Shown here piece after piece: positions 12,319 through 28,499 of a stretch of DNA of 64,000 nt; position 1 is the first letter of the stretch, and each line of letters opens with the position of its first letter. The notes beneath the pieces were generated by a model that saw nothing but the letters and a program-made list of their open reading frames with translations, was not told where the DNA came from and did no database searches. The translations under genes and the position numbers were made by a program. The DNA comes from an uncultured Candidatus Binatia bacterium (GTDB lineage Bacteria > Desulfobacterota > Binatia > UBA9968 > JAJDTQ01), in contig OZ219754.1 of assembly GCA_964291295.2 (NCBI GenBank), forward strand, positions 1 through 64,000. Reading direction: 5' to 3'.

Positions 12319-13737
12319 ATGGCTTCATCATCCACCGGAGGGGGTTCCGGAGCGGTTCCGGAGGTCGACGTGCTCATCGCGGGCGGTGGAAACGCGGCGA
12401 TGTGCGCGGCCATCATGGCCCGTCACGGCGGTGCCAGCGTGCGCGTGCTGGAGGCGGCGCCGAAAGAGTTTCGCGGCGGCAACAGCCGCCACACGCGCAA
12501 CCTCCGCTACATGCACGAGGGCGAGGACGGATTCCTTACCGGCACGTATCCGGAGGACGAGTTCTACGAGGACCTGCTGCGGGTGACCGGCGGCGACACC
12601 AACGAGGAACTGGCGCGCTTCTGCATCCGCGAGTCCCGGGATGCGGGCGAGTGGATGTCGGCCCACGGCATCCGCTGGCAGCCGTCGCTGCGCGGCACGC
12701 TGCAACTGTCGCGGACCAACGCCTTTTTCCTGGGTGGCGGCAAGGCCCTGATGAACGCCTACTACGACACCGCCGAGAAGATGGGCGTCCAGGCGGAGTA
12801 CGAGACCGAGGTGCGGGAACTGAACATCGAGGACGGCGTGTTCCGCTCGGCGGTGGTGGAACACAAGGGTGCGCGCCGGGAGGTGGCGGCCAAGGCTTTC
12901 GTCGGCGCCGCCGGCGGCTTCGAGGCCAACGTCCCCTGGCTCAAGGAATACTGGGGCGAGGCGGCAGACAACTTCATCATACGCGGCACCCCCTACAACA
13001 AGGGCCGGGTGCTGCGGCAGCTGTTCGACGCGGGCGCGAAGCCGGCGGGACGAGCCAAGGGCTTCCACGCCATTGCGCTGGACGGGCGCGCGCCCAGGTT
13101 CGACGGCGGCATCGTGACGCGGCTCGACTGCGTCCCCTTCGGAGTCGTGCTCAACAAGCACTCGGAGCGCTTCTACGACGAGGGCGAGGACTTCTGGCCC
13201 AAGCGTTACGCCATCTGGGGAACCCTCATCGCCGGCCAGCCGGAGCAGGAAGCCTGTTGCATCGTGGATGCCAAGTCCATCGACCTGTTTCTGCCCTCGG
13301 TCTTTCCGCCCTTCCAGGCGGACTCCATCCGGCAGCTGGCCGCCGCCATGGACCTCAACCCGGCCAAGGTGGAGGAGACGGTCCGGGCGTTCAACCGTTC
13401 CGTCCGGCCCGGGACCTTCGATCCGACGATACTGGACGACTGCGCCACCGAGGGCATGGATCCGCCCAAGAGCCATTGGGCGCGCGCCATCGACACCCCG
13501 CCGTTCTATGGCTATCCGCTGAGGCCGGGGATCACCTTCACGTACATGGGCGTCGCCGTGAACAAGCAGTGCCAGGTGCTTTTCGACGGGGACCAGCCCT
13601 CTCCGAACATCTTCGCGGCCGGCGAGATGATGTCGGGCAACATCCTCGGCAAGGGATATCTGGCGGGATTCGGCATGACCATCGGAACGGTGTTCGGCCG
13701 CATCGCAGGAAGGGAGGCCGCACGTGCCGTCGTCTGA
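12319..13737 (+). CDS. tcuA: FAD-dependent tricarballylate dehydrogenase TcuA (CobZ-like)
   Basis: GGGNAAMCAA, RGGNSRHTRNLR, LSRTNAFFLGGGKAL, DGGIVTRLDCV, FYDEGEDFWPKRYAIWG, RPGITFTY. Confidence 0.92.
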   Translation: MASSSTGGGSGAVPEVDVLIAGGGNAAMCAAIMARHGGASVRVLEAAPKEFRGGNSRHTRNLRYMHEGEDGFLTGTYPEDEFYEDLLRVTGGDTNEELARFCIRESRDAGEWMSAHGIRWQPSLRGTLQLSRTNAFFLGGGKALMNAYYDTAEKMGVQAEYETEVRELNIEDGVFRSAVVEHKGARREVAAKAFVGAAGGFEANVPWLKEYWGEAADNFIIRGTPYNKGRVLRQLFDAGAKPAGRAKGFHAIALDGRAPRFDGGIVTRLDCVPFGVVLNKHSERFYDEGEDFWPKRYAIWGTLIAGQPEQEACCIVDAKSIDLFLPSVFPPFQADSIRQLAAAMDLNPAKVEETVRAFNRSVRPGTFDPTILDDCATEGMDPPKSHWARAIDTPPFYGYPLRPGITFTYMGVAVNKQCQVLFDGDQPSPNIFAAGEMMSGNILGKGYLAGFGMTIGTVFGRIAGREAARAVV

Positions 13738-14842
13738 GCATCTCGAGGAAGCCAACCGGGTCATGACCATCTGCAACGCCTGCCGCTACTGCGCGGGCTT
13801 CTGCGCGGTATTTCCGGCCATGGAGCGGCGCCGCACGTTCGACACCAAGGATCTGGTCTACCTGTCCAACCTGTGCTTCGAGTGCCGCGCCTGCTACTAC
13901 GCCTGCCAGTACGCGCCGCCCCACGAGTTCGCGGTCAACGTGCCCCAGGCGCTGTCGCGCCTGCGGGCCGACACCTACGCCGACTACGCCTGGCCCCGGG
14001 TGCTGTCGGGCCTGTACCGGAACAACGCCTTCCTGGTGGGGCTCATCACCACGCTCTGCGTCGTCGCGGGTTTCGTGCTCACGCTGGTGTTTCAGGGCGG
14101 CACGACACTGTTCTCGGCCCACCAGGGCGACGGTGCATTCTACGCAGTGGTGCCCTACGGCGCCATGGTGTTCCCGGCCGCGGTGATGTTCTTCTATGCG
14201 ATCTTCGCGCTGCTGGCGGGATTCGTGAGCTTCTGGCGGCGCACCCGGGGCGGCCTCTCGGACCTGATCGATCTGTCCGCCTTCGCGCGCGCCATGAAGG
14301 AGGCCTTCGGCCTGCAGTACATGAAAGGCGGCGGCGACGGCTGCAACTACCCCGACGAGAAGTTCTCCAAGAGCCGGATGTGGCACCACCACCTGGTGTT
14401 CTATGGCTTCGCGCTGGACTTCGCCGCCACCACCGTCGCCGCGTTCTATCACCACTTCCTCCACTGGGAAGCCCCCTATCCGTACCTGAGCCTGCCGGTG
14501 GTGTTCGGAACGGTGGGCGGAGTCATGATGTGCATCGGCACGGTGGGGCTGCTCTACCTCAAGTCACGAAGCGACCCGGACCCGGCCGAGGAGACCATGC
14601 TCAGCCTCGACAGGACCTTCCTCTGGATGCTGTTCCTGACCAGCTTCACCGGACTGCTCCTGCTGGTGTTCCGGGAAACCGCCGCCATGGGGACGCTGCT
14701 GGTCATCCACCTGGGCGTCGTGGCCGGACTCTTCCTGACCCTGCCCTACAGCAAGTTCGCACACGCGGTGTACCGCTACGCCGCGCTGATCCAGAACGCC
14801 ATCGAAGTGCGGGAAGACGAGAGCAAGGTGGTCCTGGGCTGA
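13724..14842 (+). CDS. tcuB: Tricarballylate utilization 4Fe-4S membrane protein TcuB
   Basis: ICNACRYCAGFCAVFPAM, CFECRACYYACQYAPPHEF, LPYSKFAH; overlaps the tcuA end. Confidence 0.92.
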   Translation: MPSSEHLEEANRVMTICNACRYCAGFCAVFPAMERRRTFDTKDLVYLSNLCFECRACYYACQYAPPHEFAVNVPQALSRLRADTYADYAWPRVLSGLYRNNAFLVGLITTLCVVAGFVLTLVFQGGTTLFSAHQGDGAFYAVVPYGAMVFPAAVMFFYAIFALLAGFVSFWRRTRGGLSDLIDLSAFARAMKEAFGLQYMKGGGDGCNYPDEKFSKSRMWHHHLVFYGFALDFAATTVAAFYHHFLHWEAPYPYLSLPVVFGTVGGVMMCIGTVGLLYLKSRSDPDPAEETMLSLDRTFLWMLFLTSFTGLLLLVFRETAAMGTLLVIHLGVVAGLFLTLPYSKFAHAVYRYAALIQNAIEVREDESKVVLG

Positions 14843-14939
14843 GCCGGGACCGCCGGCCCGGCCAGGAGCCCGTACCGCAAGGGTTCTTGAAGTTCCGGTG
14901 GGGCGGCGGCATTCCGCAGAGCGGTCCGGTGTCTGTGAA

Positions 14940-16046
14940 TCAGTTCCGGTTCATCAGTTCGCCCATGCGCTTGCGACGGAACTCCAGAAAAGCGGGGACG
15001 TGGTCCATGCTGCCCACCGGCTCGGCCCAATCGAACTTTCCGAGGTCCCAGTCGGGGTCGTCACAGGGTCTTATCGCCAAGGGCGGCGGCACGACACGGC
15101 ATAGGTTGCCGTAGAGTGCCAGCGCCCGCCTCTGGATGAGGCTGCGCAACCTGGGCGAAAAGTCCGTGGGCCTGAGAAATGCCGCTGGCGCATAGACCGT
15201 GTTGGCCGCGCTGGTGAACAACCCGTATAACGGTGCCGGCTCACCAACATCCGACGGCAGATCCAGTTCGTCCCGCCAGCGATTCCCGTGCTCCTTGTGG
15301 TCGAGGAGGTGCGCGAGCTGGTAACCATCCGGCCCTCTCTTGGAAAACCGCTTGCCAGTGAAAACAAATGCCCACAGCTGCTTCGGGTAGTCGTTATCAT
15401 CAAGCTTGAGGCATTGCGCGGGTAACTCGGAGAGCGTCGTCCGTCTCCGGAACGCCGCGATCTCCGTGCTTCCGGCATAACGTCGAATACCCGGAAAGGC
15501 GCAGGGCGAGCCTTCCCATAGATAGATGCCAGGGTCTATGCCGAGCGCTTCCAGCCGGGAGGACCACTCGGCCCGCAAGCGCTGGTTCTCTTCGGTGACC
15601 GCGCCGACTATACCGGGATCGAGGAACCGCACGAACCGCACCATCGCCCGAGCAAGTTCAAGCAAGTCCTTCTCGCTCGGCTGCGACCAGGCCGACCAGT
15701 CCGCTCCCAACCGACGGGGTCGCTGCTCTCTTGGCCGTGGCTTTGCCGCAACTGCGGCCCGACCGGCCGGGCCGCCGGCCGCTTTCCGATAATCGCGATA
15801 GAGACGAACCGCGCTCCTGAGCGTCGCTGTACCGTTGTAGATGTCACCCTTGATCTCGATTCCGTGCTTCGGCGCTCCCGGACGCAGGCGGTCCAGAAGG
15901 CCGGCCAACTCATCCACATCGTAATGATCGTCGAGATTGCCTTCATACGGCTCGACCCGTCTGCAGTTGCTGATTCGACTCCCGACGGTCCGAGGGTCCA
16001 GTTGCCGCTCGACGCTCAACCAGCTTCTGAACCGTTCTTCCTGCAT
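14940..16046 (-). CDS. Hypothetical protein, putative nuclease (helical N-terminal domain plus His-Me/HNH-like C-terminal motif)
   Basis: ATG 16046 with GGAGAG RBS. N-terminal F..WL....T..SRISNCRRVE...GNLD.HY...ATLRSA..LY resembles N-termini of restriction-associated proteins; C-terminal GYQLAHLLDHK...GLFTSAAN..Y.P resembles a bba-Me motif (judged by eye). Confidence 0.55.
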   Translation of the reverse strand: MQEERFRSWLSVERQLDPRTVGSRISNCRRVEPYEGNLDDHYDVDELAGLLDRLRPGAPKHGIEIKGDIYNGTATLRSAVRLYRDYRKAAGGPAGRAAVAAKPRPREQRPRRLGADWSAWSQPSEKDLLELARAMVRFVRFLDPGIVGAVTEENQRLRAEWSSRLEALGIDPGIYLWEGSPCAFPGIRRYAGSTEIAAFRRRTTLSELPAQCLKLDDNDYPKQLWAFVFTGKRFSKRGPDGYQLAHLLDHKEHGNRWRDELDLPSDVGEPAPLYGLFTSAANTVYAPAAFLRPTDFSPRLRSLIQRRALALYGNLCRVVPPPLAIRPCDDPDWDLGKFDWAEPVGSMDHVPAFLEFRRKRMGELMNRN

Positions 16047-16050
16047 CCCG

Positions 16051-17001
16051 CTACTCTCCCCAACTGTCCATGTACTCCTGTACCTGCTTCCCGGCAGGGA
16101 TGATGTGAGGATTCTTTCCCCACCTGCGCCCTTGGCAAATCGCCTCGATGACGTCTGCACGCCAGCACAAACCCAGCGCAGCCTCGTTCTCGACTCTCCC
16201 GACTCGGCCGCTGTAGCAACCGACGAACATGGTGCCTTCACTGCCGAAAAGCGCCACATCGTCCCGCTCCCAAAAGCCCGGTTCCTTCGGGTCGACCCTG
16301 CGGTAAGGATCTCGTGTATCCCACGAACCATGAAATCTGGCAAAAACGGGAGAGCCTGACATGCCCGATCGTGTGAGAGCATCAACAAAAAAAGCGGGGA
16401 TACGGATACCTCCTACGAGACCGCCATAGCTCGAAAGCTTGCCGCCAAGATCGACATCGTAGTGAGGCTCCGACGCGACATAACCGGCTTTCCATAGCGG
16501 CAAGCCGAAACCAATACTAATCGCATGAGGAAAGCCGATCACGAAGACGACGCATCCGGGCTCCACGGGTATTTTGACTTCACTGATGCGGTTCGCCGCG
16601 TTATGCATGAATTCGGGGCACGTGCCTGGTCTGTTCATGGGAATCGCAACCACATCACAGGACGCTCCGAATTCTGGATGCTCGAACCATACCGGCTGTT
16701 CTCCGCGATAGAGCGGAATACGGTGAGGCCCGATCGCGAATGTTCCGCTTCGGCGGTCGCCCATATCCCAGGAGGCCAACTTGGCCGTCAGGCTGATGGT
16801 TTCGACGAATGGGTGGGTCAACGGTTCCCGGGTCATGAAGTGGCGACCGCTGACTACATGCCAATTGGTGATCAGGAACCAATCCCCGTCCGTCTCGAAA
16901 AAGAAGGCACTGGCAGACGACAGAATCCGACCGTCTTGATCCTGGGTCAGCAATTGAAACGGGCATTGCGAATACGTACTTCTGATTCCGTGCTGCGGCA
17001 T
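16051..17001 (-). CDS. Trypsin-like (S1) serine protease, no signal peptide
   Basis: Catalytic triad motifs LITNWHV, CDVVAI and SGMSGSPV; VFVIGFP. Confidence 0.85.
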   Translation of the reverse strand: MPQHGIRSTYSQCPFQLLTQDQDGRILSSASAFFFETDGDWFLITNWHVVSGRHFMTREPLTHPFVETISLTAKLASWDMGDRRSGTFAIGPHRIPLYRGEQPVWFEHPEFGASCDVVAIPMNRPGTCPEFMHNAANRISEVKIPVEPGCVVFVIGFPHAISIGFGLPLWKAGYVASEPHYDVDLGGKLSSYGGLVGGIRIPAFFVDALTRSGMSGSPVFARFHGSWDTRDPYRRVDPKEPGFWERDDVALFGSEGTMFVGCYSGRVGRVENEAALGLCWRADVIEAICQGRRWGKNPHIIPAGKQVQEYMDSWGE

Positions 17002-17701
17002 GAATCGCTCAAGCTTCGGCAGAATTTGATGCCCTTACCTCACAACGCGCACTCAGGCAACTCCAACTTCTCACTATATACCCACCTGATGGCAGGAGAC
17101 GGGCTGGTTCGGTGTTACGCGGTCGATGGACTGCGATTCGTCGTCCGGTAGCTCGCGTATAGCGGTAGTCAGAGCCTTCTGCAGCGCTTACTTGTATGCG
17201 TCGAACATCTCAACTACGCGACTTCGCGCCCCTCAGGAGATTCAGAGAAACCGCAGCGCCATCCTCGTAATAGAAACGCACCGGCCACCGTTGCTCCGAC
17301 GCGGACGAAGGATACCGGTGGCTGAGAAACCGCAGTTGAGATAAGCCGCAGAACTTTAGCGGCGAACTGGGGAGTACACATCGGCGAAGTTCTGCAGGTT
17401 ATCGGCATACCCCCGCGTCAAGCGATCCGCTGTAGGAGTTGAAGTAGGGTACGCCGCATCCTCCAAGGTCAGCGGCGCATCACTGCCACCCCTTGTCGAA
17501 CCGACGGGCGCCGAACCATCCCACCTTGAGCGACCGCTCCGCTTCCGGAGGAATTTACTGGAGCTCTTGTAGGAAGTCCTCGAGCATCCCATTTATAGTA
17601 TAGTGTCGATCGTCGCCCTTGCTCGTCATAGCCATATGATATCAAATGAGATTGTGTGATAGGTGATAACGTAAAGCTGCCAACAATTAGGAAGCATAAT
17701 C

Positions 17702-18865
17702 TCACCTTACCAAGCCTTCGCCAAGCACTTCCTCAACGATCTCATTACTGTCGAGAAAGTCCACCGATACCAAGTCATCTTCCGGGTCATGCCCGGCTAA
17801 CCTAACTTCTTCGATTACTTGCTGCATAGTGTTCACAATCTTGCGAGGAGTGATTTCAGTAAGTTGTGAGGCGATTGCCTCGATCGCCCCTTTCTCAAAC
17901 GGGAAAAAATCCTCCCTACCATCCTGACTTATCCTATTTCTATTGAAAATTTCTCGAACAAAGATGACTGCATCGTCTTTGTTTAGTCCCAACAACTCAA
18001 TCTGGCGATGAATACGGCCCAAAATATAGTCAAAGAACAATACTGGCAGCTGTGAAATTTCTGCTGATAGCGCGATCACCATGCAGAAGCAGTTCGGGCA
18101 ATTGTCGTAGATCTGCCGAAGAATATCGTTGACCTCGCGCGCCTCCTTAATGCTCGCGCGCTCGAGATCGTCTAGGTCGTCGATAAAGAGGTAGCTAGCC
18201 TTCTTGAATCGACGCCTATCGGAATCCGAGATTTCCATTTCGTGCACAAAAAGGTTAACGAGTCGCGTAAAAATCATCATAGCTTGGTAATCAGCGAGTG
18301 CCTTTGGCGCGATCAAAGTCCGGAAATCCTCCTCTTGTTGGCAATGATAAAGCACCTTCGCGAAGTTATTCAGCTCGACTGGAGGAATCAATATTTCGAT
18401 GATCTTATCCGCTGAAATCTCGTGATCGTACCCACGAGCAGTTCGACAAAGAGCAATACATTCCATCAGAAAATTATGGAACGCCTGCGTATTCGACAAC
18501 AGGTCTGACCTAGCAACGATATCGTCGAGAAAGGCTCCCGCAAACGTTAGCTTGCCCTTGTCCTTGCGTAGCGTCGGTATAAAGTAACAGACCGAGTCGA
18601 AATCGTCCTTGTCGTCATGCAAAATCTTGTTTTGTGCCCAGAGAAGGGCATGAGATTTCCCGGTTCCATAGTCGCCATATAGCATCAGGAAATTCGCATT
18701 TCCCACTTGGTCAGCCAAAGAGCGATGCAAATACTTGACAATTTGCCTTTTCTGCTGTTCATAGCCAACCCAGATGGATGCCCTGGGATCTGCGGCAAAA
18801 TTTGGGTTGGAACGGAACGGGTTACCGTTCAGGTTCGCTTTCTTATAGTAGTCTGCTGGCAACAT
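17702..18865 (-). CDS. AAA+-type P-loop ATPase (gene 5 of the island operon)
   Basis: N-terminal NPF, Walker A GDYGTGKS, Walker B LFIDDLD, lid FPF...AI...TPRK; start overlaps the upstream stop (TGATG; in-frame alternatives at 18868 and 18871). Confidence 0.8.
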   Translation of the reverse strand: MLPADYYKKANLNGNPFRSNPNFAADPRASIWVGYEQQKRQIVKYLHRSLADQVGNANFLMLYGDYGTGKSHALLWAQNKILHDDKDDFDSVCYFIPTLRKDKGKLTFAGAFLDDIVARSDLLSNTQAFHNFLMECIALCRTARGYDHEISADKIIEILIPPVELNNFAKVLYHCQQEEDFRTLIAPKALADYQAMMIFTRLVNLFVHEMEISDSDRRRFKKASYLFIDDLDDLERASIKEAREVNDILRQIYDNCPNCFCMVIALSAEISQLPVLFFDYILGRIHRQIELLGLNKDDAVIFVREIFNRNRISQDGREDFFPFEKGAIEAIASQLTEITPRKIVNTMQQVIEEVRLAGHDPEDDLVSVDFLDSNEIVEEVLGEGLVR

Positions 18866-19818
18866 CACCATTTTGCATTCTCCAGTTTTTGCCACTGCCC
18901 CCGCGCCAGAAATCGACGCACATCGGGTAGTTCATATCCGTTCATCATCAGCTCCGCAACATACTTTTCCACAAAGCCCAACTCATCCTCGCGAACCCCG
19001 TAGCATAACTCTTCGTTACAGGGCGCCTCACCGAGTGCCATTCCGGCCGATGTGAGATTTGCAGATCCCACGAGGATCAACGACGAATATCGGCTACCCT
19101 CGCGTAGACCCGGCTCATAGCGTCGACTTTCGTCGAAAACAAAACAATACAGCTTGGTGTGAAGTTTCGGATAGACGAATATGCCGACGCCGAGATCGGA
19201 CAGTTTCTCCATCCATTCGATATTCCGATCCTTCGGTGGGGCGGTAAACAGGACGACGCTAGCCCCGTCTTCCACTTGCTCCAGCAACAGCCTACCAAAC
19301 CGCGCCGTCGGCGCGAGGAGGTCACCGTTCACAAAGGGCGCTACAAGCCAAATATCCCGGTGCGGCAGATTCCTCCGAGCGAAGATTTCGCGGCTGATCT
19401 GCGCCGATGGCAGGTTTCGCTTGAACCGGTTCACTGGTGGTGCGATCGCTTGCGACCTCTCTTTCGTACCAATCGCGCCAAGCCCTGCTGGCAGGGCTGA
19501 GCCTGCTTCCGCTACTGGAAGTGCCGATTCGACCGCGCCGTCCTGAGGTTCGGCCAGCCGATCCTCGACACTGTGCTCACCGGCCCGGAACAAATACGTG
19601 TCCGCTCCCTTGCGCAGGAAGATCACGCGGTAGGAAGTGCGCCGTCGACTTACGTAACGAATCCACGCGTTCCTAATCCCTTGATAGGGGTGATCGTCCG
19701 AATCGTCGCGAAACGTCCCGTCCAGACGGATCGTCTTCTGCAAGACCCGCCGCGCAAAATGCGGGTCACTGTGGCCCTGCAGGTCAGCGACAAACTCAGG
19801 AAGCAGGAAAACTGGCAT
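18865..19818 (-). CDS. RelE/ParE-like N-terminal domain fused to a single-HKD phospholipase D-family nuclease domain (gene 4)
   Basis: N-terminal EFVADL...HPYQG...W...YRVIF....YLFRAGEH; C-terminal WLVAPFV, LHTKLY, VGSANLT..G...NEE. Confidence 0.75.
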   Translation of the reverse strand: MPVFLLPEFVADLQGHSDPHFARRVLQKTIRLDGTFRDDSDDHPYQGIRNAWIRYVSRRRTSYRVIFLRKGADTYLFRAGEHSVEDRLAEPQDGAVESALPVAEAGSALPAGLGAIGTKERSQAIAPPVNRFKRNLPSAQISREIFARRNLPHRDIWLVAPFVNGDLLAPTARFGRLLLEQVEDGASVVLFTAPPKDRNIEWMEKLSDLGVGIFVYPKLHTKLYCFVFDESRRYEPGLREGSRYSSLILVGSANLTSAGMALGEAPCNEELCYGVREDELGFVEKYVAELMMNGYELPDVRRFLARGQWQKLENAKW

Positions 19819-19820
19819 GG

Positions 19821-21035
19821 CTATTTCCTCACGCTCAACGTGCCACCCGTGTTCCTAGACTGCCTGAATGCCAAGCAGCGTTCCTCCCCTTTCTGTTCCC
19901 TTGCAACGACCGCCGGGATGTCGAGCACCCGCATCTCCGTCGCACAAGCCAGCGCGACTGCCACTGGATAGGCGACTGCAACCGGCAACTCACGACGCAA
20001 CATGACCTTACGGACATGCAAGCTTCGAAACACGGCCATCATATCACCTATCAGCGAGAGAGCCTTGTCCGAGTCTCCTTCTTCGGGCGCCTTCACTTTA
20101 AGACCGGCATACGCGTATCCGAAATCGACAAGGCTCGTCCACAGGCTTCTTGCGCTCTCGCCGAACTGATCCGGTCGGAAACCGGAGCGCACTGACTCAT
20201 AGTCCATTGGCCAGAAGGTGAAGCGGTCATGCGCATCAACATAACCAGTTTCCCGGAGCCTTGCAATGAACTCATGACCGAGCCGGCTCAACATACGCTG
20301 ATCTCTATCCCACAGGCCGAGCGAGGAGGCCCAATCCCGACGACGCGGCGGTACTTTCCGAAAATAGTCGTCCGAAAACTTGACCCTCTCACTCTCATTC
20401 GCCGTGCGTCCTGGTTCACTCTCAACCTGCAATGGCTCGGTACGCCTAAGTGAGGCCACCGACCGTCTTGTCCCGGTGCGGCCCTTGTTTTTCTCTTGGT
20501 GCTCAATCGTAATCACCCGGTTGATGTGTTCAGCGGAGGCCTTGCCGGGCATGAACCTCCGCGCGTCGCTGCGCTTTTGAGTCATCATTTGATGCAGCGT
20601 ATCCTTGATTCGCTGTTCCTGAAATCCGGCTAAGAGCAAATTCATGAAGATCTCGCCGTCGTTTACCAGAATGCTCCACAGCAGGAGAAAGTCTTGCGCG
20701 GCGTCTTGGTCAGGCTTGTTGTTCAACAGTTTGGTTGCGATTGCCATCGCATCAAGGTTCTCAAGAACGAGGATATCGCCAGCCGTTCTCTGGATCAGAC
20801 GCAGCGAATGAAAAAAGTCAGCGATGTGCTTTTCCGCGCTCTTGTCGCGTCCCCAGTTTCCGTCCTCTTTCCTACCTGTCACCAACTCACTCCAGCTGCC
20901 CACCGTCAAATCGTGATCTTGCAAATACCGCGCGACCAATCCGCCCACACGTTTGGCGGTGGACTCTAGTCCTACCGAATAGCCGACTTTCCGGAAGAGA
21001 ACGGAATAGGGGTCAGAATGGGCTGTAGCCGCCAT
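19821..21035 (-). CDS. Hypothetical protein, 404 aa (gene 3)
   Basis: Long ORF overlapping the upstream gene by 23 bp and 2 bp from the next start; no catalytic motif recognised. Confidence 0.75.
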   Translation of the reverse strand: MAATAHSDPYSVLFRKVGYSVGLESTAKRVGGLVARYLQDHDLTVGSWSELVTGRKEDGNWGRDKSAEKHIADFFHSLRLIQRTAGDILVLENLDAMAIATKLLNNKPDQDAAQDFLLLWSILVNDGEIFMNLLLAGFQEQRIKDTLHQMMTQKRSDARRFMPGKASAEHINRVITIEHQEKNKGRTGTRRSVASLRRTEPLQVESEPGRTANESERVKFSDDYFRKVPPRRRDWASSLGLWDRDQRMLSRLGHEFIARLRETGYVDAHDRFTFWPMDYESVRSGFRPDQFGESARSLWTSLVDFGYAYAGLKVKAPEEGDSDKALSLIGDMMAVFRSLHVRKVMLRRELPVAVAYPVAVALACATEMRVLDIPAVVAREQKGEERCLAFRQSRNTGGTLSVRK

Positions 21036-22410
21036 GTGCGCTTACCCTCGGACGCATCTGAACTAGGACTGTGCGGCTGCTCGCTTGGTCACCGAGGAAA
21101 CACTGACCGGCATCTAGGACTCGCACCATGTCCCCGAAATCACTCAAGGTGGTGCCCGCGAACCTCATACTGCGTACCGACCTCGTCGGAATACGGTTCA
21201 CCGCGGCGTTGATGTCGCTTTGGAAACTCAGCCGATGGTTGAAGGTCACGTTCACTTGGCTCAAGATCCGATCGTCAAGCGCCGACGGCTGTTGTGTGGC
21301 CAAAATCAAAGAAAGGCCGGCATCCCGACCTCGCTTCACATACTCAACGAGCGCGCTGCGTGCCGCCGAGATGTCACCGCTTGGTGCCACAACATGTGCT
21401 TCGTCGATGACCAGCCAAACTCGATCCGGTGTTCCATCGTCCTCGAACGGTTTCCCGAAGAAACTCGATGTCTTCTTCCTGTTGTGGTGTTTACCAAGAA
21501 TATCGAACAGGTTTCGAGCAATCACGGCGGTGATCAGAGACTTATCTTCGTTCCGCAACTCCCACAGCGACAAGATATTACAGATTCCGTCTTCCAGAAA
21601 GTCTCTTACCGTCAAACCGCTTGCAGAGAATAGATCCGTGCGCCGGTAGTCGTCCAGCTTGTAAGAGATCGCGTTTCGCGAAGACTCCGCGACGGTTGGC
21701 CAATTGCTGTCGTCCGCGATGAAAGCGAGCATGTCAGATAGTTCGAAGTCCGCTTCTCCCAGAGCCTCTAGTGTTGCTGCAACGATGTGTCCTTGAGGGC
21801 TGTAGACCTCTTGGCCAAGCAACGCGCACCATTCTTCGGCGCACACATCTCTCGGCCTGATCTGGAGTGTTTTTTCGTTGCCGAGGAACGTTGTCGTCCC
21901 GGGAGGCGTATACACCCTCGTCTCTGCCAAATTAGTGGGTTCGATATTCCAGCGTACGAGTTCCTCCAGTTGCATCTTGTTTGCAGGGATCGTTTGGCGC
22001 GGCGCATAGCCCAACGTCCAGAACTGGCTCTGCGTATCGATCACGATCGAGGTAATCGGCTTCACATGGTTCTGAATAGGCGACTTGTTTTGTAGCTTCG
22101 AAATGCCTTCAACGAGCACGCCAAGGTCAAAGCTTTTTCCACTTCCACGTGTACCCGTGATGTAAATTACATGCGGGAAGGTAGTATCCAGCCAAGCATC
22201 GGCTCCCAGATAACTCTTACCCTTGGTCGACTCCAGAAGTTTTCCGATGTAGATCAGATTATCGTAGTCCTCACCTTGCAACGCGCGACCGAAAACAACA
22301 TTCTGTCCTTTTTGAACATACTGCAATTTGACTAACGGATCCTCGACCGAGTAGGGACTCTGTTGGATGACGGCCCCAAACCGTTCAGCCGATTTGCTCA
22401 AGAAACTCAT
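21013..22410 (-). CDS. HerA/FtsK-superfamily ATPase (DUF87-type) (gene 2)
   Basis: PHV.YI.GTRGSGKS, IDTQSQF, LVIDEAH, KRGRDAG, LATQQPSALD; ATG 22410 overlaps the upstream gene end. Confidence 0.88.
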   Translation of the reverse strand: MSFLSKSAERFGAVIQQSPYSVEDPLVKLQYVQKGQNVVFGRALQGEDYDNLIYIGKLLESTKGKSYLGADAWLDTTFPHVIYITGTRGSGKSFDLGVLVEGISKLQNKSPIQNHVKPITSIVIDTQSQFWTLGYAPRQTIPANKMQLEELVRWNIEPTNLAETRVYTPPGTTTFLGNEKTLQIRPRDVCAEEWCALLGQEVYSPQGHIVAATLEALGEADFELSDMLAFIADDSNWPTVAESSRNAISYKLDDYRRTDLFSASGLTVRDFLEDGICNILSLWELRNEDKSLITAVIARNLFDILGKHHNRKKTSSFFGKPFEDDGTPDRVWLVIDEAHVVAPSGDISAARSALVEYVKRGRDAGLSLILATQQPSALDDRILSQVNVTFNHRLSFQSDINAAVNRIPTRSVRSMRFAGTTLSDFGDMVRVLDAGQCFLGDQASSRTVLVQMRPRVSAHGGYSPF

Positions 22411-24256
22411 TCTGATATTCCTTGTACGACAGCCATGCTGGTCGGTCGCCCGAGTGCAAAAGAAGCACTCTCGTCGGCCGTAGCGCGTCCAAGTAGTGTG
22501 CGTGGTTCGCCGCTCCAATAAAAGCAACCCGGCCCGTTGCAATAATCTGCTTGCGTAGATTATGGGCGACTATCTTCGCAATAAGAGGATCCAAATCGCT
22601 GCAAAATTCATCCAGCAACCACACTTCCTCGTCTCGGAGAAGTAGGTCTGCGATCATTGCCCGGTATTGCTGACCTCGACTCAGCATCCAGTAAGGCTTT
22701 ATGAACGCCAAGGCCTCGGACAGCCCGACACGGCTAAGCGCAGCGAACGCCCGCTGCGGAGTAGACTTATCGGCCAATACTTCGAAAACCGAAATGTCAT
22801 CCCGCAAAGGCCGCAACCATCCCGCAGAGTATTTCAGGCTCCCGGCGAGCTTCACCGTCAAGTTACCATCGGCTCCCTTCTCGGGATCGAGCGCGTTCAA
22901 CAACACGCTTTTGCCGCTTCCGCTACTGCCGACGACCAGAATGATGTTGCCGTTCGAAGCCCTAACGGCCACGTCCTGAACGATGTCCGCGTAAACAGTG
23001 TCGCCCTTCAAACCAAAGGCATCCATGATGACTTTGGTCGAGCGGGTCTCGGGAATCTGGTATTTCGCTCGAATTGACAAGCTATCAATATTGATGTATG
23101 TGCTCTTGGCCGAAAACCCCACCGCGTCCCCATCCTCGTCATCCTCGGGCGGCGAGGACCTCAATGCTGCCCGAAGATACTCGGAAGCATAATCGTCGAG
23201 CGGACACAGATAGTACGGAATCGGGTTGCGGATCACCGACCGGAGCATTGCCCACTCACCCGTATTTAGCGCATTCTGGTTCTGCTCGACTTTTCGTCTG
23301 AGCACTTCAAGGCCTTCCTTGAAGGTGATCTGAATGGTATTGCAATAGTCCTTCAACACGCGGAAGTACTTGCGCTGCAAAGTCATTATACCGAACTCTC
23401 CGCATGGCGAACGCTCCATCTGCTCCATGTCCTTTATGACGCGCGAGAGATTGCCTTCTGTTTTCCCAATATATTTAAAGCCCGACGATGACACAAAATC
23501 AATATGGGTCAACATCTCAGCGGAAATTTCCACAAAAATCGGGCGCATGCCGCCAATATGCCAGCGTTCAGCAGAAAAGGTCTTCGCAGCCTTGATAATC
23601 CTCCGCGTAATGCCAAGGCCTCGTAGTTCCGGTCTCACGACGATTCGTCCAATTCTGACAATTGCATTCAGATAACCCTTCATCGCATGCTGATCCCAAC
23701 GCTCCCAACGAATAGAGCGTTTCGGGTGTCGAAAGGGCTTATTGAACAAATTGTGCCGCGGCTTACACATCATCAGCGGCATTTGCAGGTCGACATAAGC
23801 CGCAGGAAGCCACTGCTTGCCGATCCGGACGTCGGCGTAAAGAACAGCGCGGCGGCCGCCAACTGTTGTCGTCGAGTTCTTTGATTCGGTGGCAGGACTT
23901 CTTTCCGCTAACGAATTGTTCGTCTTGTAGTGAAACTGCTCTAGAAACTCCAGGCCACGCATTGCGGCTTCAGAATTGATTTCGCGAATATTGATTCGAA
24001 ATTTATCCCTTCCGATCGATACCGTGTCGGTCGTTGAAAATAGAGGGGTCAGCGGAATAGGCGACTCTGCTTCGTCCTTTGCCACTACGAATACCTTGTT
24101 CGATCCGGCTGCGCCAAAGTGAATGCGGTCTCCTTTACCGACAACAGCAAACCGATGGAGGCGCACCACCACGGAGGCGCCGTCACCACCTTTTACCGTC
24201 AAGTTCTTAATATGACCCTTCGGGTTGACTGTGAGGACGCTATAGATCTTGGACAT
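22385..24256 (-). CDS. GNAT acetyltransferase-ABC ATPase fusion (COG2401-type) (gene 1)
   Basis: LEQFHY; GNAT motif A RIGRIVVRPELRGLGI; VE..AEM....F....GF.Y; ABC Walker A GSSGSGKS, signature LSRGQQYR, Walker B LLDEF..DLD, H-loop AANH; no TM segments. Confidence 0.85.
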   Translation of the reverse strand: MSKIYSVLTVNPKGHIKNLTVKGGDGASVVVRLHRFAVVGKGDRIHFGAAGSNKVFVVAKDEAESPIPLTPLFSTTDTVSIGRDKFRINIREINSEAAMRGLEFLEQFHYKTNNSLAERSPATESKNSTTTVGGRRAVLYADVRIGKQWLPAAYVDLQMPLMMCKPRHNLFNKPFRHPKRSIRWERWDQHAMKGYLNAIVRIGRIVVRPELRGLGITRRIIKAAKTFSAERWHIGGMRPIFVEISAEMLTHIDFVSSSGFKYIGKTEGNLSRVIKDMEQMERSPCGEFGIMTLQRKYFRVLKDYCNTIQITFKEGLEVLRRKVEQNQNALNTGEWAMLRSVIRNPIPYYLCPLDDYASEYLRAALRSSPPEDDEDGDAVGFSAKSTYINIDSLSIRAKYQIPETRSTKVIMDAFGLKGDTVYADIVQDVAVRASNGNIILVVGSSGSGKSVLLNALDPEKGADGNLTVKLAGSLKYSAGWLRPLRDDISVFEVLADKSTPQRAFAALSRVGLSEALAFIKPYWMLSRGQQYRAMIADLLLRDEEVWLLDEFCSDLDPLIAKIVAHNLRKQIIATGRVAFIGAANHAHYLDALRPTRVLLLHSGDRPAWLSYKEYQNEFLEQIG

Positions 24257-24499
24257 TGCGCTGACCTTGCTTCGTTCGGTGGCTGTTCAGATCCTAAGAG
24301 TGTGCGTCGCAGGAACTGTGGCGTTGGGCAAGGGGTTCTGGGTCGCTGATGGACCGGTTGGACACAGATGAATGGGAGAGTTTCAAAAACGTCGCAGCGT
24401 CCGTCCCAGCAACACGGTCGCTCGTTCACTGACGATTCGCATGAGCGGCATCCCTCTCATGTCAACGGTCGGCGGCTCTACGACTGGCTCGGCATGTCA

Positions 24500-25200
24500 C
24501 CAACTCCCCCAATGCACTTCAAGTTCAACGCCAAGCACATCAAATACCACTCGCCTCGCACCTTCTCCACTTCGCGTAGGCCGAATCGCCGGAACTTCAA
24601 CACATCCTTGATTCAGCCGTTCGGCTCCTCCGAGACCCACGTGCGTTTCGCTGGACTCTCCTCGCCCGGCTTCCGCCGCGGACATCATCGACCGCACGTT
24701 GCACCGCTTCCAACCACGCTTTTGCCTGCTCGACTACCGCCAAGCGCTTCCCCATCTCTGCAACTCTTCCGGCAAAGCCTCTCCATGCCTCTTTCCACCG
24801 TAGCGGTCATCTTCTTCGACATCAACCGCCCCACCCTCGCCAGCAACCCCTGAATCTCTCCCTCCTGCCGAGCGTCGTCCTGTAACATCCGCCCGTCGCT
24901 CATCGCCTTGCGCTTGCTCGAATTCACCCGAACCTTTGTCCCGTCCACCGACAACATCCCAAACCACACCACATCCACGAAACGCCGCTTAAAGTCCTCT
25001 AAATGACGCCACCGAAACTCACAAATCGTCCGGTGCGGAGGAAAGTCTTCCACACCATGTACCCGGAGCGCCAGATACCCCGACGGAAGCCACTTGTGGG
25101 TTCGGCGGCAGCAACGGTAGCGGCTCCGGCTCGTTGGGATGAAATGTCGTCGGCAACCAACCAATCATCCATCAACAAGTTCTTGTCAGCTTGCACAACC
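24500..25200 (-). pseudogene. Degraded IS1182-family transposase (approximate limits)
   Basis: Fragments in several frames: FPPHRTICEFR.RHL..F, DGTKVRVNSSKRKAMS..RM, DVEEDDRYG, and C-terminal SEEPNG*IKDVLKFRRFGLR..EKVRGEW.LMCLALNLK; in-frame stop and internal deletion. Confidence 0.8.
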
Positions 25201-25250
25201 CCTCCCCATCAAAGCTGTCCCCTCACCAACCTCTTCTGCTGCGCACAGTC

Positions 25251-26249
25251 CTAACAGGTATCGAACAGGCGCTGGATGGCGTCCGGGTCCTGGGTGACGG
25301 TGAGGGCGAGGGCCAGTAGCACCCGGGCCTTCCAGGGCTGGAGGTTGTCGGCGGTGACCACGCCGCGCTTGCGCAGACCGGGGCTTCGGGCGACCCGGCC
25401 GGAACCCACACGGCTGCCAATGCATACCGTCACGCCCTTCTCGCGGGCGCGTTCGAAGGCTTCGTCCTGTGCCGGCGTGGGCCGGCCGGCGCCGCTGGCC
25501 GCGCAGACGATGCCCCTTGCTCCCGCGGCCACGCTGGCGTCGATCAGGACCCCGTCCGCGCCCGCGTGCGTCACCACCACATCCACCCGGGGCAGCGACT
25601 CCAGACCGGTCACGTCGAACTCGGCGGCGGCGGTGTGCGGCCTGGCCGTGCGGTGGTAGTAACGCACCTGCCCGTCGGCGTCGGCGAAGCCCAACGGCCC
25701 CAGGTCCCGTCCCTGGAATGCCTCGACGCGGTACGTGGCCGTCTTGGTCAGATCCCGGGCGCCGTAGATCCGGTCGTTCATCACCGCCAGCACGCCCTGA
25801 CCCCGGGAATCCGGATGCGCCGCCACCCGCACGGCGTTCAACAGATTGAGAAAGCCGTCCGCGCCCAACGCCGATGCCGGGCGCATGGACCCCACCAGCA
25901 CCACCGGACGGTGGGACCGGAGCACCAGGTTCAGGAAGCAGGCGGTCTCTTCGAGGGTGTTGGTGCCGTGGGTGATGACCACGCCGTCGGTGCCGCCGCG
26001 CTCGAGGATCCCGTGCAGCAATCCCGCCAGGTCGAGCCAGTCCCGGTCCACCAGGGCATGGCTCGGGAGGCGCCGGAACGGAATCTGCTCCACATGGGCG
26101 ATGCCGGCCAGTTCGGGGACGGAGCCCACCAGCTCGCCGTCGCCGAGCCGCCTGTTGTTCTCGATGTACCAGGCGAGATCAAGGCGGTCGGCGCCGACGG
26201 AATCGATGGTGCCTCCGGTGAGGATCAGGGCAACTCGGGGCAGGGTCAT
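25251..26249 (-). CDS. L-asparaginase family protein (cytoplasmic)
   Basis: ILTGGTID, ITHGTNTLEET, PVVLVGSMRP, ADG..NL, KARVLLALAL. Confidence 0.92.
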   Translation of the reverse strand: MTLPRVALILTGGTIDSVGADRLDLAWYIENNRRLGDGELVGSVPELAGIAHVEQIPFRRLPSHALVDRDWLDLAGLLHGILERGGTDGVVITHGTNTLEETACFLNLVLRSHRPVVLVGSMRPASALGADGFLNLLNAVRVAAHPDSRGQGVLAVMNDRIYGARDLTKTATYRVEAFQGRDLGPLGFADADGQVRYYHRTARPHTAAAEFDVTGLESLPRVDVVVTHAGADGVLIDASVAAGARGIVCAASGAGRPTPAQDEAFERAREKGVTVCIGSRVGSGRVARSPGLRKRGVVTADNLQPWKARVLLALALTVTQDPDAIQRLFDTC

Positions 26250-26412
26250 GGTGAGGGTTCCGGGTCCGTCGAGACGAGCGGGATCATGGCAACGCCGAAG
26301 TCGGCCGGAAAACTATCCGACCAACCGTCTCCCGGTCAACCGGGAAGCGTGTCCGGCGGTCGCCTCTGTCGGTCATCTCTGTCGGTCACCTCCGGCAGGC
26401 GGGTGCGGTGTC

Positions 26413-28269
26413 TCACGGCTTGCGCGCACCGGGCGACAGCCGCACGCGCACCAGGATCGGGTCATGGTCGCTGGCGCGCGCCGCGGTGGCCGCGAACTCC
26501 GTGTTGACGTGCACGATGTCCACCTCGGCGGACGGGCTCAGCGACGGGCTCACCAGGATATGGTCCAGGGACTGGGCGTTGCCCTCGAAGATGTAGCTGT
26601 AGCGCTCGGTCGGAGGCAGCTTCCGGGTGAGATTGGAAAGACGGCGTTCGAGGATCCGGAGCGGCGAGACGAACGTGAACTCGTTGAAGTCGCCCAGCGC
26701 GACGATATCCGCGCCGCCCCGCGCCGCCAGCCTCCGGACCGCGAAGTCGTGGATCGCGCGGGCCTGCCTCCGGCGGCGTCCCACCCCGCCGTTGACCGCC
26801 GGGTCTTCCTGACGCTCGGCAACCGGCTGGACCTCTCCGAACAGCGGCGCACTGCCGCGCTTGGAGTTGAAGTGGCTGTTGACCACGGTCACGGGACCGT
26901 GGCCCGGGACCCGGGACCGGAAGGTCGCCACCAGGGGCAGACGGCCATTGAAGAACGGATTGCCCGGACGCGTCCGCTGGTCCACGGGGTCGGTGACCGT
27001 GCCCACCGACCCCGGAACGAGCGCCACGCGCGCAGGGTTGTAGAGGAAGGCCACGCGGATGTTGCCGCCGGGTTGGCCGCCGCTGGTGTCGCTGCCGATG
27101 AACGGATGATCGATGAAGCGGTAGCGCACCGGCCCCAGGGCGGCGATGCGGTCGGCCAGCAACCGCAACGTGACGTTGGCGGCCTTCACTCCGCTCCTGG
27201 CGGAACCGTCGTTGTCCTGCACCTCCTGGAGGGCCAGGATATCGGGATACCGGAGATTCCGCGCAATGACGGCGGCGACCGCGTCGAAGCGGCCCCCGGC
27301 CACATCCTTGTCCCCGTCGGCGTCGTTGGGGTCGAGATTGAGCACGTTGAAGGAGGCGAGGGTCATGTAGCCGTCTCTGGCGGCCAGAGCGGTCGTTTCC
27401 GGAACCAGCCGGCCCCGGGCCGTTTTGAACGGGCGCGTGAACCGGACCTCGTAGTTGCCGAACCCGTAGCTCATCACGCCGGTGACGTTCCCCAGGGAAT
27501 CGCCCACGCTGACGTCCGGCGTGACCATCGGACTGAGACCGGGATCGTCGTTGATCTTGATGCGCTCCGGATTGAAGTCGCCCGGGCGCAGGGTGAGGAC
27601 GCCGCGCCGGCTCAGGCCCGAAGGGGAGACCCCGCGAGGCAGTACGAAGATCTCGCCGAAGCGGCTCGTCGGACTGATGGCGACGGCGTTTCGCACCGTG
27701 ACCCGCATGCCTTCCAGGGTTTCGTAGAAGTCGATGCCGTCCTGTCCGGGATCGAAAACGGTAATGCCGTCGTTGTCGATGATCCGGTCGGGCGGTGTGC
27801 GCCCACCCGCCCCCAGCACCACCGGATGGGGAAGCCGATGGCCTCGGGACAACCGCGCGAGCCGCGGGCGGATGATCTGGGTGATGGTGAGGTTGCGGGT
27901 GGATGCGCCGCCGGGCTGGTACTCGGACACCATGCCGCGCACACGGACGTTGTCGCCCGGCGCCACCGCCGGTGTCCTCCGCGTGAAGACGAAAACGGCA
28001 TCCGAAGTATCGGGGTCGCCGTCCCCGGCCGCATCCTGCAGATAGAACCCGTTGGTATCGACGGCCGTCACGGTGCCCGTGGCGGTGACCCGCTGACCGC
28101 GAAAAGGCGAGATGTGACCGCGGCCCTGGATCCGTCCGATGGACGTCGTGACCGCGGCGCTGGCAACGCGCGTCTCATGGATGGAACCGTTGGCGCCGGG
28201 TTGAAGACAGGCAACCACCGGCGGCGCCAGGAGCAGGGCGCACACGCACCGGACCGCCCTCCCCGCCAT
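26413..28269 (-). CDS. Secreted endonuclease/exonuclease/phosphatase (ExeM/YhcR-like OB-fold plus EEP); start uncertain (28269-28347)
   Basis: IQGRGHISP..G..V, GFYLQD..GDGDP.TSDAVFV, FYETLEGMRV, FNVLNL, ALQEVQDN, NSHFNSK, GDFN, LDHILVS, SDHDP. Confidence 0.9.
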   Translation of the reverse strand: MAGRAVRCVCALLLAPPVVACLQPGANGSIHETRVASAAVTTSIGRIQGRGHISPFRGQRVTATGTVTAVDTNGFYLQDAAGDGDPDTSDAVFVFTRRTPAVAPGDNVRVRGMVSEYQPGGASTRNLTITQIIRPRLARLSRGHRLPHPVVLGAGGRTPPDRIIDNDGITVFDPGQDGIDFYETLEGMRVTVRNAVAISPTSRFGEIFVLPRGVSPSGLSRRGVLTLRPGDFNPERIKINDDPGLSPMVTPDVSVGDSLGNVTGVMSYGFGNYEVRFTRPFKTARGRLVPETTALAARDGYMTLASFNVLNLDPNDADGDKDVAGGRFDAVAAVIARNLRYPDILALQEVQDNDGSARSGVKAANVTLRLLADRIAALGPVRYRFIDHPFIGSDTSGGQPGGNIRVAFLYNPARVALVPGSVGTVTDPVDQRTRPGNPFFNGRLPLVATFRSRVPGHGPVTVVNSHFNSKRGSAPLFGEVQPVAERQEDPAVNGGVGRRRRQARAIHDFAVRRLAARGGADIVALGDFNEFTFVSPLRILERRLSNLTRKLPPTERYSYIFEGNAQSLDHILVSPSLSPSAEVDIVHVNTEFAATAARASDHDPILVRVRLSPGARKP

Positions 28270-28499
28270 CCCGACCCGGCGTTCCCCCATCAAAGACCGC
28301 ATGTCACGACCCGTGTTATCCCACCGCGGCATGGACCTCAAACGCACCCGCAGATCCCGGCCGCTGCCTCAGTCCCGGCCGCCGCCCGCTGTTGTTTCCC
28401 GCCCGGCGTACCCGTTGCCCATTTCCGGTCCTGTCGGTATGCTCGGGGTGTGCACAGGAGTACTGTTCGGCGTGCCGTCCTGGCGAAAGGAGGATTGCC

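Follow-up and report, generated by a model that had tools for sequence, protein, structure and literature searches.

A conserved five-gene cassette with GNAT-ABC, HerA-type and PLD-domain proteins from an uncultured Binatia bacterium as a candidate mobile defence system

Introduction

What is the function of a compact block of five genes which encodes ATPases of three classes together with a GNAT domain and a predicted PLD nuclease domain? This question is raised by positions 17702-24256 of a stretch of 64,000 nucleotides from an uncultured Candidatus Binatia bacterium (assembly GCA_964291295.2, contig OZ219754.1, positions 1 to 64,000), and this whole stretch is called the window throughout. 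A preliminary description, made from the letters of the window alone, had proposed an undescribed defence system in which acyl-CoA-dependent marking of self is combined with restriction or abortive infection. The five genes of the cassette are encoded on the minus strand and are named g1 to g5 in the order of transcription:

22385-24256, minus strand: g1, 623 amino acids (aa), GNAT-ABC ATPase
21013-22410, minus strand: g2, 465 aa counted from the ATG at 22410, HerA/FtsK-superfamily P-loop ATPase
19821-21035, minus strand: g3, 404 aa, closed family without known domain
18865-19818, minus strand: g4, 317 aa, probable RelE/ParE-like domain, variable linker and PLD domain
17702-18871, minus strand: g5, AAA_16/ORC-Cdc6/BrxC-like P-loop NTPase

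We regard it as likely that this cassette is an anti-invader system.

Organisation and conservation of the cassette

Neighbouring genes interlock closely, with overlaps of 26 bp between g1 and g2 and of 23 bp between g2 and g3, and with a gap of 2 bp between g3 and g4. At the junction of g4 and g5 the sequence ATGGTGATG spans the stop codon of g4, and the overlap amounts to 7 nt or to 1 nt (TGATG) depending on the ATG chosen for g5; its start is probably the ATG at 18871, the alternatives being a GTG at 18895 and an ATG at 18865. The coordinates and all junctions given in the preliminary description for five same-strand genes with overlapping or abutting ends were reproduced. The block is also more AT-rich than its surroundings, as had been stated, with a GC content of 0.47-0.59 within the five genes versus 0.63-0.70 in the flanks. 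No 19-residue stretch of the cassette proteins exceeded a Kyte-Doolittle value of 1.84 and therefore none of them contains a convincing membrane helix, in agreement with the earlier remark that membrane components are missing. The motifs described as intact in the window copy, namely GNAT motif A, the ABC motifs, Walker A and B of HerA, the HKD motif of the PLD domain and Walker A and B of g5, were all found. A promoter scan at the locus yielded 0 sigma-70-like sites, and terminator-like sites occurred at chance level.

The conservation of this arrangement was studied in 58 related loci, 11 of which came from a pattern-based scan that took one genome for each species and 47 from a scan of metagenome contigs with a g3 profile. 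Hidden Markov models (HMMs) of all five proteins were searched against every open reading frame (ORF) of these loci, and a gene was counted as complete if at least 85% of its model was covered. All five genes were complete and in the same order and strand at 29 loci; 24 further loci were cut by a contig end with the visible part colinear, two (L040, L044) lay on very short contigs cut near their ends, and three (L008, L009, L057) deviated. The five-gene order thus recurs at 55 of the 58 loci (29 complete, 26 contig-cut and colinear), a count that is not fully independent because some metagenome contigs form near-identical pairs (L017/L019, L032/L038, L042/L043, L049/L050). Conservation of the order and co-occurrence of the homologues in other genomes, which the preliminary description had made a test of its proposal, were hereby established. 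L008 carries a truncated g4 and a mere remnant of g5 next to intact g1-g3, and L057 is an isolated g3 fragment. No gene in the flanks of the related loci was common across the family; the unit therefore consists of exactly these five genes.

Ratios of nonsynonymous to synonymous substitution rates (dN/dS), determined for all five genes in pairs with unsaturated dS, were 0.03-0.15 in the more diverged pairs; the values of 0.10-0.32 in the near-identical pair L022-L028 stem from very few substitutions. The five genes form a single unit that is conserved, coupled in translation and subject to purifying selection. A chance cluster of ORFs was rejected, as the gene order recurs at 55 of 58 loci and dN/dS is low. 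Mean pairwise identity among 30 complete systems was 0.61 for g2, 0.50 for g5, 0.45 for g1, 0.39 for g4 and 0.34 for g3, which makes g2 the slowest-evolving and g3 the fastest-evolving gene.

The 11 genome loci belong to Alpha- and Gammaproteobacteria and to one metagenome-assembled genome (MAG) of the Spirochaetia. Close copies share 67-82% g1 identity in Alpha- and Gammaproteobacteria and 57% in the Spirochaetia MAG. The g3 profile gave 154 matches among 1.84 billion cluster representatives, 0 matches in a sample of 400 other genomes of the same phylum, 0 among 72,556 plasmid and 50,697 phage records and none in viral contigs. The cassette is rare and patchily distributed.

Two variants of the layout deserve mention. 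In one clade, comprising seven loci (L019, L022, L028, L029, L033, L042, L043), three more conserved genes follow g5 on the same strand, for example at L022:8227-11840. They encode a 283-aa protein of unknown family, a 435-aa ATPase of the BrxC/BrxD family (PF10923 on 89 of 89 matches) and a 450-565-aa paralogue whose C-terminus, judged by eye, resembles sigma-70 region 4. These loci may carry an extended, eight-gene form of the cassette or, closely linked to it, a second system. At L009, the locus of the Spirochaetia MAG (9965-15200), g1 and g3 overlap directly and each has a short novel terminal extension. L009 may be a natural HerA-less four-gene variant or the result of a recent deletion.

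The GNAT-ABC protein g1 and its ASCH variant

Four parts can be distinguished in g1: an N-terminal domain (residues ~1-100), a GNAT domain (~100-290), a helical linker and an ABC ATPase domain (~415-623). The N-terminal domain and the linker had no match among the comparisons made. The ABC domain was recognised by Pfam ABC_tran (1.4e-11), and its profile matches in the PDB were ABC nucleotide-binding domains (best 1e-16); it resembles those of transporters and ABC-F proteins, not the SMC or OLD types. Walker A, the signature LSRGQ and Walker B are present in the window copy, and Walker A, the signature S-x-G-Q, Walker B and the D-loop were invariant in 37 of 37 g1 sequences, including Walker A K449, S526, G528, Q529, D549 and E550.

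The GNAT match of the window protein alone was weak (E 0.011-0.035). Acetyltransf_1 was detected in 17 of 18 diverse g1 members (best 3.8e-6) and Acetyltransf_7 in 16 of them, and the GNAT assignment of the preliminary description is thus real. Within the GNAT-profile match lies the R/Q-x-x-G-x-G/A pattern of acyl-CoA-binding motif A, which reads R212-G-L-G215 in the window copy; R212 and G213 are kept in 37/37 sequences and G215 in 30/37. Further invariant residues of this part are H109, Y110, G134, R135, R201, R204 and N269. The GNAT domain contains numerous invariant Arg, Lys and His residues, as would suit a polyanionic substrate.

At six loci (L021, L022, L028, L033, L042, L043), grouped with support in a single clade of the HerA tree, g1 is extended at its C-terminus by a further domain of ~110 aa. 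A profile of this extension retrieved 41 matches from 5.8 billion proteins, and 41/41 carried PF04266 (ASCH); standalone ASCH proteins matched at 1e-15 to 1e-10, and some fragments were annotated as ABC_tran plus ASCH. Weaker evidence came from PDB entry 3iuw (E 0.11) and from an hhalign comparison with two clean ASCH sequences (E 3.5e-4), and a heterogeneous alignment of five ASCH sequences gave no match. ASCH is the fold of N4-acetylcytidine amidohydrolases, and in Escherichia coli YqfB the residues Lys21, Thr24 and Arg26 are described as essential for hydrolysis of N4-acetylcytidine (PMC6972931). The extension contains the motif GxKTSTIR, in which K-x-x-T-x-R shows the same spacing as these three residues.

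The combination of a writer-type GNAT domain and an eraser- or reader-type ASCH domain on one chain points to an N4-acylcytosine-type product on nucleic acid. The acylation idea of the preliminary description is hence supported by the ASCH fusion of one clade, which would suggest a nucleobase as the acceptor. We see roughly an even chance that g1 acylates a nucleobase.

The putative effector g4

The C-terminal part of g4 is a single-HKD PLD domain of the Nuc/NgoFVII type, found by PLDc_2 in 17 of 25 members (best 8.6e-8) and by RE_NgoFVII in 13 of 25. The window copy keeps the H-x-K...G-S-x-N motif with H220, K222 and GSxN254. The N-terminal domain (residues 1 to ~95) is probably RelE/ParE-like. 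An hhalign comparison with the ParE_toxin alignment covered 78 colinear columns (E 0.0021, probability 14%), YoeB_toxin and ParE_toxin matched just one of 25 members each, and a language-model atlas returned RelE-like/ParE (0.90) and YafQ (0.89). The ParE_toxin HMM did not match g4 of the window, and no antitoxin, the usual neighbour of such BECR-fold toxins, was identified with g4. The PLD half of the earlier RelE/PLD assignment therefore stands, whereas the RelE half depends on these three weak lines.

The two domains differ in the constancy of their residues. D42, H43, R54 and R64 of the N-terminal domain are invariant in 42/42 sequences, and R78, H82 and E85 occur in 41/42. In the PLD domain H220 is kept in 31/42 (otherwise N in nine, C in one and Q in one), K222 in 33/42 and N254 in 31/42. 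As far as such residues tell, what stays constant in the predicted effector is the RelE-like domain. Losses of the H-K-N triad were placed on the HerA tree, which has 39 rows and leaves out the g4-bearing loci L009, L027 and L034, as these have no full g2. The triad was lost at least four times, and the five ORFs are intact in those lineages. One of the losses lies in a diversified seven-locus clade with N-R-E at the triad positions, and L025 independently has Q-R-E. No recurring replacement nuclease gene was found in the flanks of the triad-less lineages, and dN/dS of the PLD domain was 0.027 in the His-less pair L002/L004. Loss of the triad with retention of the domain constitutes a natural experiment on which effector matters.

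The proteins g2, g3 and g5

The assignment of g2 is supported by Pfam DUF87 (1.2e-7), by the PADLOC models mad8 (6.8e-16) and HerA (down to 2.9e-14) and by profile matches to solved HerA chains of the defence type in the PDB (9c1m 2.2e-11, 8xau 5.8e-10). Walker A and B as well as R360 and R362 are invariant in 47/47 sequences, and g2 is a probable hexameric DNA translocase.

For g3 no match was obtained in Pfam, PADLOC, NCBIfam or the PDB. Of the 150 profile matches listed, ~85 were full-length (~400 aa) and the remainder were shorter fragments. The language-model atlas gave leads that all scored below 0.9, comprising RE_AlwI, FokI recognition domains (0.87) and BpuJI_N and thus pointing to the parts of type IIS enzymes that recognise DNA, and a self-comparison produced a hint of internal duplication with an E-value of 0.07 only. 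By analogy, g3 is a candidate specificity or adaptor component.

Matches of 24 g5 members were distributed over AAA_16 (21), AAA_22 (17), BrxC_BrxD (9), TniB (6), NACHT (5) and Bac_DnaA (4). Numbered from M9, the window copy shows Walker A with K72 and Walker B with D231-E232. All 38 sequences share K72 and D231, R286 and P342 are likewise invariant, and so are the Walker motifs and a candidate arginine finger. In the PDB, just marginal matches to AAA+ loaders were found (TnsC 0.21, DnaI 0.14). The preliminary description had called g5 an AAA+ ATPase; the family matches correct this to an AAA_16/BrxC-like P-loop NTPase, as distinct from a classical AAA+ protein.

Relation to known systems

PADLOC-DB 2.0 contains no model for g3 or g4, divergent members included, and it gave domain-level matches only for g1, g2 and g5. 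The earlier expectation that no catalogued defence system would match in full was thus borne out in this database. No description of this combination was found in the literature searched, and a prior listing in supplementary tables or in a classification of ABC ATPases is possible. The claim of novelty holds for the particular combination of genes but not for the general architecture, which has computational precedent in two reports (PMC10853773; PMC12839542).

The first precedent is provided by the HerA/FtsK capture systems, which according to PMC10853773 are known from computation only and comprise HerA, an ORC/Cdc6-like ATPase, a fast-evolving protein and a nuclease. Invading DNA is proposed there to be intercepted and translocated towards an effector (PMC10853773). 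Like these systems, the cassette couples a HerA/FtsK ATPase in a mobile operon to a protein with a nuclease-type domain and to an accessory protein that evolves rapidly, with g5 as a candidate for the ORC/Cdc6-like partner (PMC10853773 for the comparison); the HerA/FtsK part is represented by g2 with its DUF87 match and its similarity to HerA chains. It differs in three respects. The capture systems, as portrayed in that source, use domains of the restriction endonuclease (REase) fold or inactive versions of it (PMC10853773), whereas no REase family was found in the five proteins with Pfam and PADLOC and a RelE-like-PLD protein takes this place. They use proteins with multiple winged helix-turn-helix domains of the DndG/SspB/FokI-like kind (PMC10853773), whereas g3 has no detectable winged helix-turn-helix or DUF4007 signal. 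Finally, section 22 of PMC10853773, which treats the capture systems, makes no mention of a GNAT-ABC(-ASCH) protein.

The second precedent, BREX-related capture (BRC), is likewise rare and computational, and it shares with the cassette HerA/FtsK, a GNAT and a BrxC-like ATPase, while its DNA-binding protein, which evolves fast, may have a counterpart in g3 (PMC12839542). BRC is defined by PglZ, DUF6079, a STAND NTPase, DUF4007 and often TGT, is spread over 45 phylogenetically wide-ranging taxa and is proposed to modify DNA by means of GNAT (PMC12839542). In the cassette the GNAT domain instead shares a chain with an ABC ATPase, and a RelE-like-PLD protein takes the place of the effector. Membership in BRC was rejected, since none of its defining parts was detected: Pfam and PADLOC gave no match to PglZ, DUF6079 or DUF4007 in the five proteins, and the DUF4007 HMM had 0 matches genome-wide.

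Other candidates share single components. SIR2-HerA and DUF4297-HerA have a HerA of the defence type in common with the cassette and consist of two genes as against five. They were rejected because Pfam and PADLOC gave no match to SIR2 or DUF4297 in g1 and g3-g5 and because the NCBIfam model HerA_antiphage reached 35.7 bits versus a cut-off of 850. MADS is, like the cassette, a rare multi-gene system with multiple ATPases, and partial matches were found for mad3 on the ABC domain of g1 (9e-9) and for mad8 on g2 (see above). Among its eight genes are those for an m6A methyltransferase, for kinases and for the OLD-like MAD3-MAD4 Toprim nuclease (PMC13662399). Membership in MADS was rejected, as Pfam, PADLOC and NCBIfam revealed neither a methyltransferase nor a Toprim or kinase domain in the cassette.

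For the chemistry of g1 the closest parallel is TmcA/NAT10, an ATPase-coupled GNAT enzyme which writes N4-acetylcytidine. TmcA uses a helicase-type ATPase and acts on tRNA and rRNA in housekeeping, whereas g1 has an ABC domain and belongs to a mobile cassette with HerA and PLD proteins. In the GNAT-ABC-ASCH variant of g1, a writer-type domain as in TmcA/NAT10 is combined with an eraser-type domain as in YqfB (PMC6972931).

A further similarity was noted to the GNAT-like domain of DruA (PF14236, formerly DUF4338). The hhalign comparison with the GNAT domain of g1 extended over 194 columns (E 5.5e-4, probability 30%) and included the motifs FHY, GGRR, PRH and W..W; the PF14236 HMM did not match g1 in the genome. 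Both proteins stand in defence contexts, yet the cassette has no DruB-E partners as in Druantia, and we treat the likeness, seen in sequence profiles, as a lead and not as membership. The same HMM matched seven sites elsewhere in the genome that carries the cassette (G000:C1), for example at 698978-699370, 1537314-1537706, 2794939-2795331 and 3518990-3519382. Five sites lie in frames of 786-810 aa, four of them as two pairs of equal score, and two lie in frames of 321 aa. They look like a multi-copy element that encodes a DruA-like domain and is unrelated to the cassette.

Proposed function and competing explanations

The reading that we favour, tentatively and with somewhat less than an even chance of being right as a whole, is a mobile HerA-capture-type defence system in which one arm acylates nucleic acid and a RelE-like/PLD protein serves as a dual effector. 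According to this model g5 would, together with the fast-evolving g3, recognise target DNA and load onto it, and g2 would then pump or hold that DNA. g1 would dimerise on ATP via its ABC domains and acylate a nucleobase from acyl-CoA, most plausibly cytosine at N4, in DNA or, less likely, in RNA. Where present, the ASCH domain would read or remove the acyl mark. The output would be provided by g4, whose RelE/ParE-like domain probably cleaves RNA and arrests translation and whose PLD domain would cut DNA in the lineages with an HKD triad.

The acyl mark might either label self DNA or disable the nucleic acid of the invader. A more specific version of the model appears doubtful: here the discriminating signal would be an acyl group, most likely N4-acetyl, on DNA cytosine, which the GNAT-ABC protein writes at the expense of ATP and according to which HerA, g5 and g3 act, with an ASCH reader or eraser joined to the writer in one clade and the RelE-PLD protein as a dual effector on RNA and DNA. 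A mark that serves as a self-label in the style of restriction-modification we consider unlikely. Known modification-based immunity of bacteria relies on methylation, phosphorothioation, 7-deazaguanine insertion and glycosylation of DNA. If the proposal is true, it would add the first acylation-based epigenetic mark of self and non-self in prokaryotic immunity, a new chemistry of immune marking by acyl-CoA-dependent, ATP-coupled acylation of nucleobases, and a bacterial context for writers and erasers of N4-acylcytosine beyond tRNA and rRNA. The cassette is sharply bounded and can be cloned as a single 6.6-kb piece, which offers an experimental handle on the computational concept of HerA/FtsK capture.

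Several points weigh against the proposed acylating capture system. GNAT enzymes also acetylate proteins, aminoacyl-tRNA and small molecules. ASCH is found in only six g1 loci, g1 of the window is without it, and the domain could alternatively sense modifications on phage DNA. Of the 42 g4 sequences, 30 have the full H-K-N triad and 12 do not; repeated loss of the triad with all five genes intact implies, as far as catalysis can be read from these residues, that DNA cleavage by PLD cannot be a universal step or output of the system. Comparison of g3 with DUF4007 gave an hhalign probability of 1%, so that a DNA-binding role of g3 would be an analogy only. L009 has no g2 (HerA) and keeps the other four genes. 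The association with defence islands described below consists of raw neighbour counts, and the absence of the cassette from the phage, plasmid and viral sets neither supports nor excludes a defence role.

The alternative which survives best, and which we take as a real if minor possibility, is abortive infection or capture without any mark on nucleic acid. In such a system the ATPases would sense and hold invader DNA, and the RelE-like domain and, where active, the PLD domain would be the effector. The GNAT domain of g1 would act as a second toxic effector or as a regulator that acetylates proteins or aminoacyl-tRNA, and ASCH would sense modified phage DNA. A model for this is given by toxins of the TacT/AtaT type, which acetylate aminoacyl-tRNA or proteins. 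The invariance of D42, H43, R54 and R64 in the RelE-like domain of g4, the dispensability of PLD catalysis in at least four lineages and the lack of a recognised dedicated reader of unmodified DNA in the cassette are consistent with this explanation. It also agrees with PMC10853773, which treats ASCH domains in fusions with restriction nucleases as binders of modified DNA and proposes GNAT fused to DndF as a co-effector that targets proteins. A shared acyl-cytosine substrate is, however, the simpler explanation for writer- and eraser-type domains on one polypeptide with K-x-x-T-x-R kept. In addition, the strong conservation of g1 (ABC motifs in 37/37) and its constant place as the first gene suggest a core enzyme and not a toxin in reserve, and no antitoxin-like partner is apparent for a GNAT that would be constitutively toxic.

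We consider a strict analogue of restriction-modification, in which g1 constitutively acylates host DNA and HerA, g3, g5 and the PLD domain degrade unmarked DNA, to be distinctly unlikely. Its domain inventory would parallel those of Dnd, BREX and Dpd-like systems, and the ASCH fusion supports a nucleobase mark. The decay of L008, where g4 is truncated, g5 is almost lost and g1-g3 are intact, is what one expects if a modifier outlasts the restriction arm, and it is a single case. Evidence against this explanation comes from the PLD domain: the nucleophilic His is replaced in 11/42 sequences and the triad is incomplete in 12/42, the triad was lost at least four times, including in the seven-locus clade, with five intact ORFs and no recurring replacement nuclease in the flanks, and the His-less pair L002/L004 still shows a dN/dS of 0.027 in this domain. 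The strict restriction logic of the preliminary description, by which PLD cuts unmarked DNA, is weakened by these losses.

Neighbouring genes and mobile-element context

The flanks of the 11 genome loci were scanned as a pool of 108 ORFs of at least 150 aa, and ten of the largest were in addition scanned singly. Defence genes could be assigned to four loci:

L010, directly upstream of the cassette: IetS
L008, flank: DrmD-like SNF2 helicase
L009, flank: type I restriction subunit (REase)
L011, flank: AbiEi

IetA, pAgo with an Aga-SIR2 protein and S and methyltransferase subunits of type I systems were found in the pooled flanks without assignment to a locus. Mobile-element genes of the pool were TrbI (in three members), VirB8, CagX, replication initiator A (RPA), DUF2840 and phage-type integrases (in two members). 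With neighbours of both kinds, the cassette thus travels in defence islands and conjugative elements. The mobile and defence-rich context that had been proposed is borne out by these flanks in raw counts.

The conjugation genes TrbI, VirB8, CagX, RPA and DUF2840 around several loci could also be taken to indicate a non-immune role, with the cassette as cargo for segregation, transfer, replication control or anti-defence of a mobile element, or as a RelE-like addiction module. HerA/FtsK and ORC-like ATPases also serve DNA segregation and conjugation, and RelE/ParE domains are classic addiction toxins. Such a role is nevertheless very improbable: none of the five genes encodes an integrase, a relaxase or a replication protein, the flanks of the loci have no gene in common, and searches of 72,556 plasmid and 50,697 phage records did not find the cassette. 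In addition, bona fide defence genes often adjoin it, and its content of GNAT, PLD and RelE-like domains is effector-like.

The genomic island of the window

In the window the cassette is part of an island with the following main features:

14853-25250, no strand: genomic island of 10.4 kb within the tcuB-asparaginase intergenic region, carries the cassette
24685-25164, minus strand: transposase relic, insertion sequence (IS)-like, at the right edge of the island, a neighbour outside the system

In a genome of the same genus (G418), the positions corresponding to window 14852 and ~25270 are joined by a spacer of 112 bp, representing the site without the island; the cassette therefore sits in a 10.4-kb insertion. 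The low-GC profile agrees with an insertion of 14853-25250, and the cassette was acquired as part of an island. Its placement between tcuB and the asparaginase gene was confirmed for both neighbours, the left one through a homologue with 48% identity that is annotated as tcuB and the right one by Pfam. No convincing direct repeats were found at the island borders, and an Rfam scan detected no family within the island. An inverted repeat of 21 nt with 81% complementarity is formed by 14887-14907, inside the left border, and 24580-24600, just upstream of g1 and beside the IS-like relic; it may represent old transposon ends or a chance match.

The ORF at 24685-25164 had been described as a relic of IS1182. 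It is called IS-like because ~970 plasmid records matched it in a tblastn search at ~34% identity; the single plasmid record inspected had no annotation beneath the match. Its IS-like character was thus retained, the family label IS1182 was not confirmed, and no Pfam match was found. The island contains, besides this relic and the cassette, a 482-aa ORF without family match (14940-16388, minus strand), which overlaps the ORF of a trypsin-like peptidase (16051-17001, minus strand; Trypsin_2 2.6e-5, PADLOC candidate PDC-S45 1.2e-6). Neither these two nor the relic is kept beside the cassette at other loci, and the peptidase and the 482-aa ORF may be separate cargo of the island.

The sequencing runs X2 and X3, which carry the same organism label and belong to the same study as the one run that contains the cassette, contained next to none of the sampled words of the cassette; this would fit strain-specific carriage and is no proof of absence. 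In the high-GC flank of the window, long ORFs overlap on opposite strands at 25846-28515 (plus strand, 889 aa) and 26413-28347 (minus strand). Exo_endo_phos (1.8e-14) was found on the minus-strand ORF only, and the 889-aa plus-strand ORF is probably spurious.

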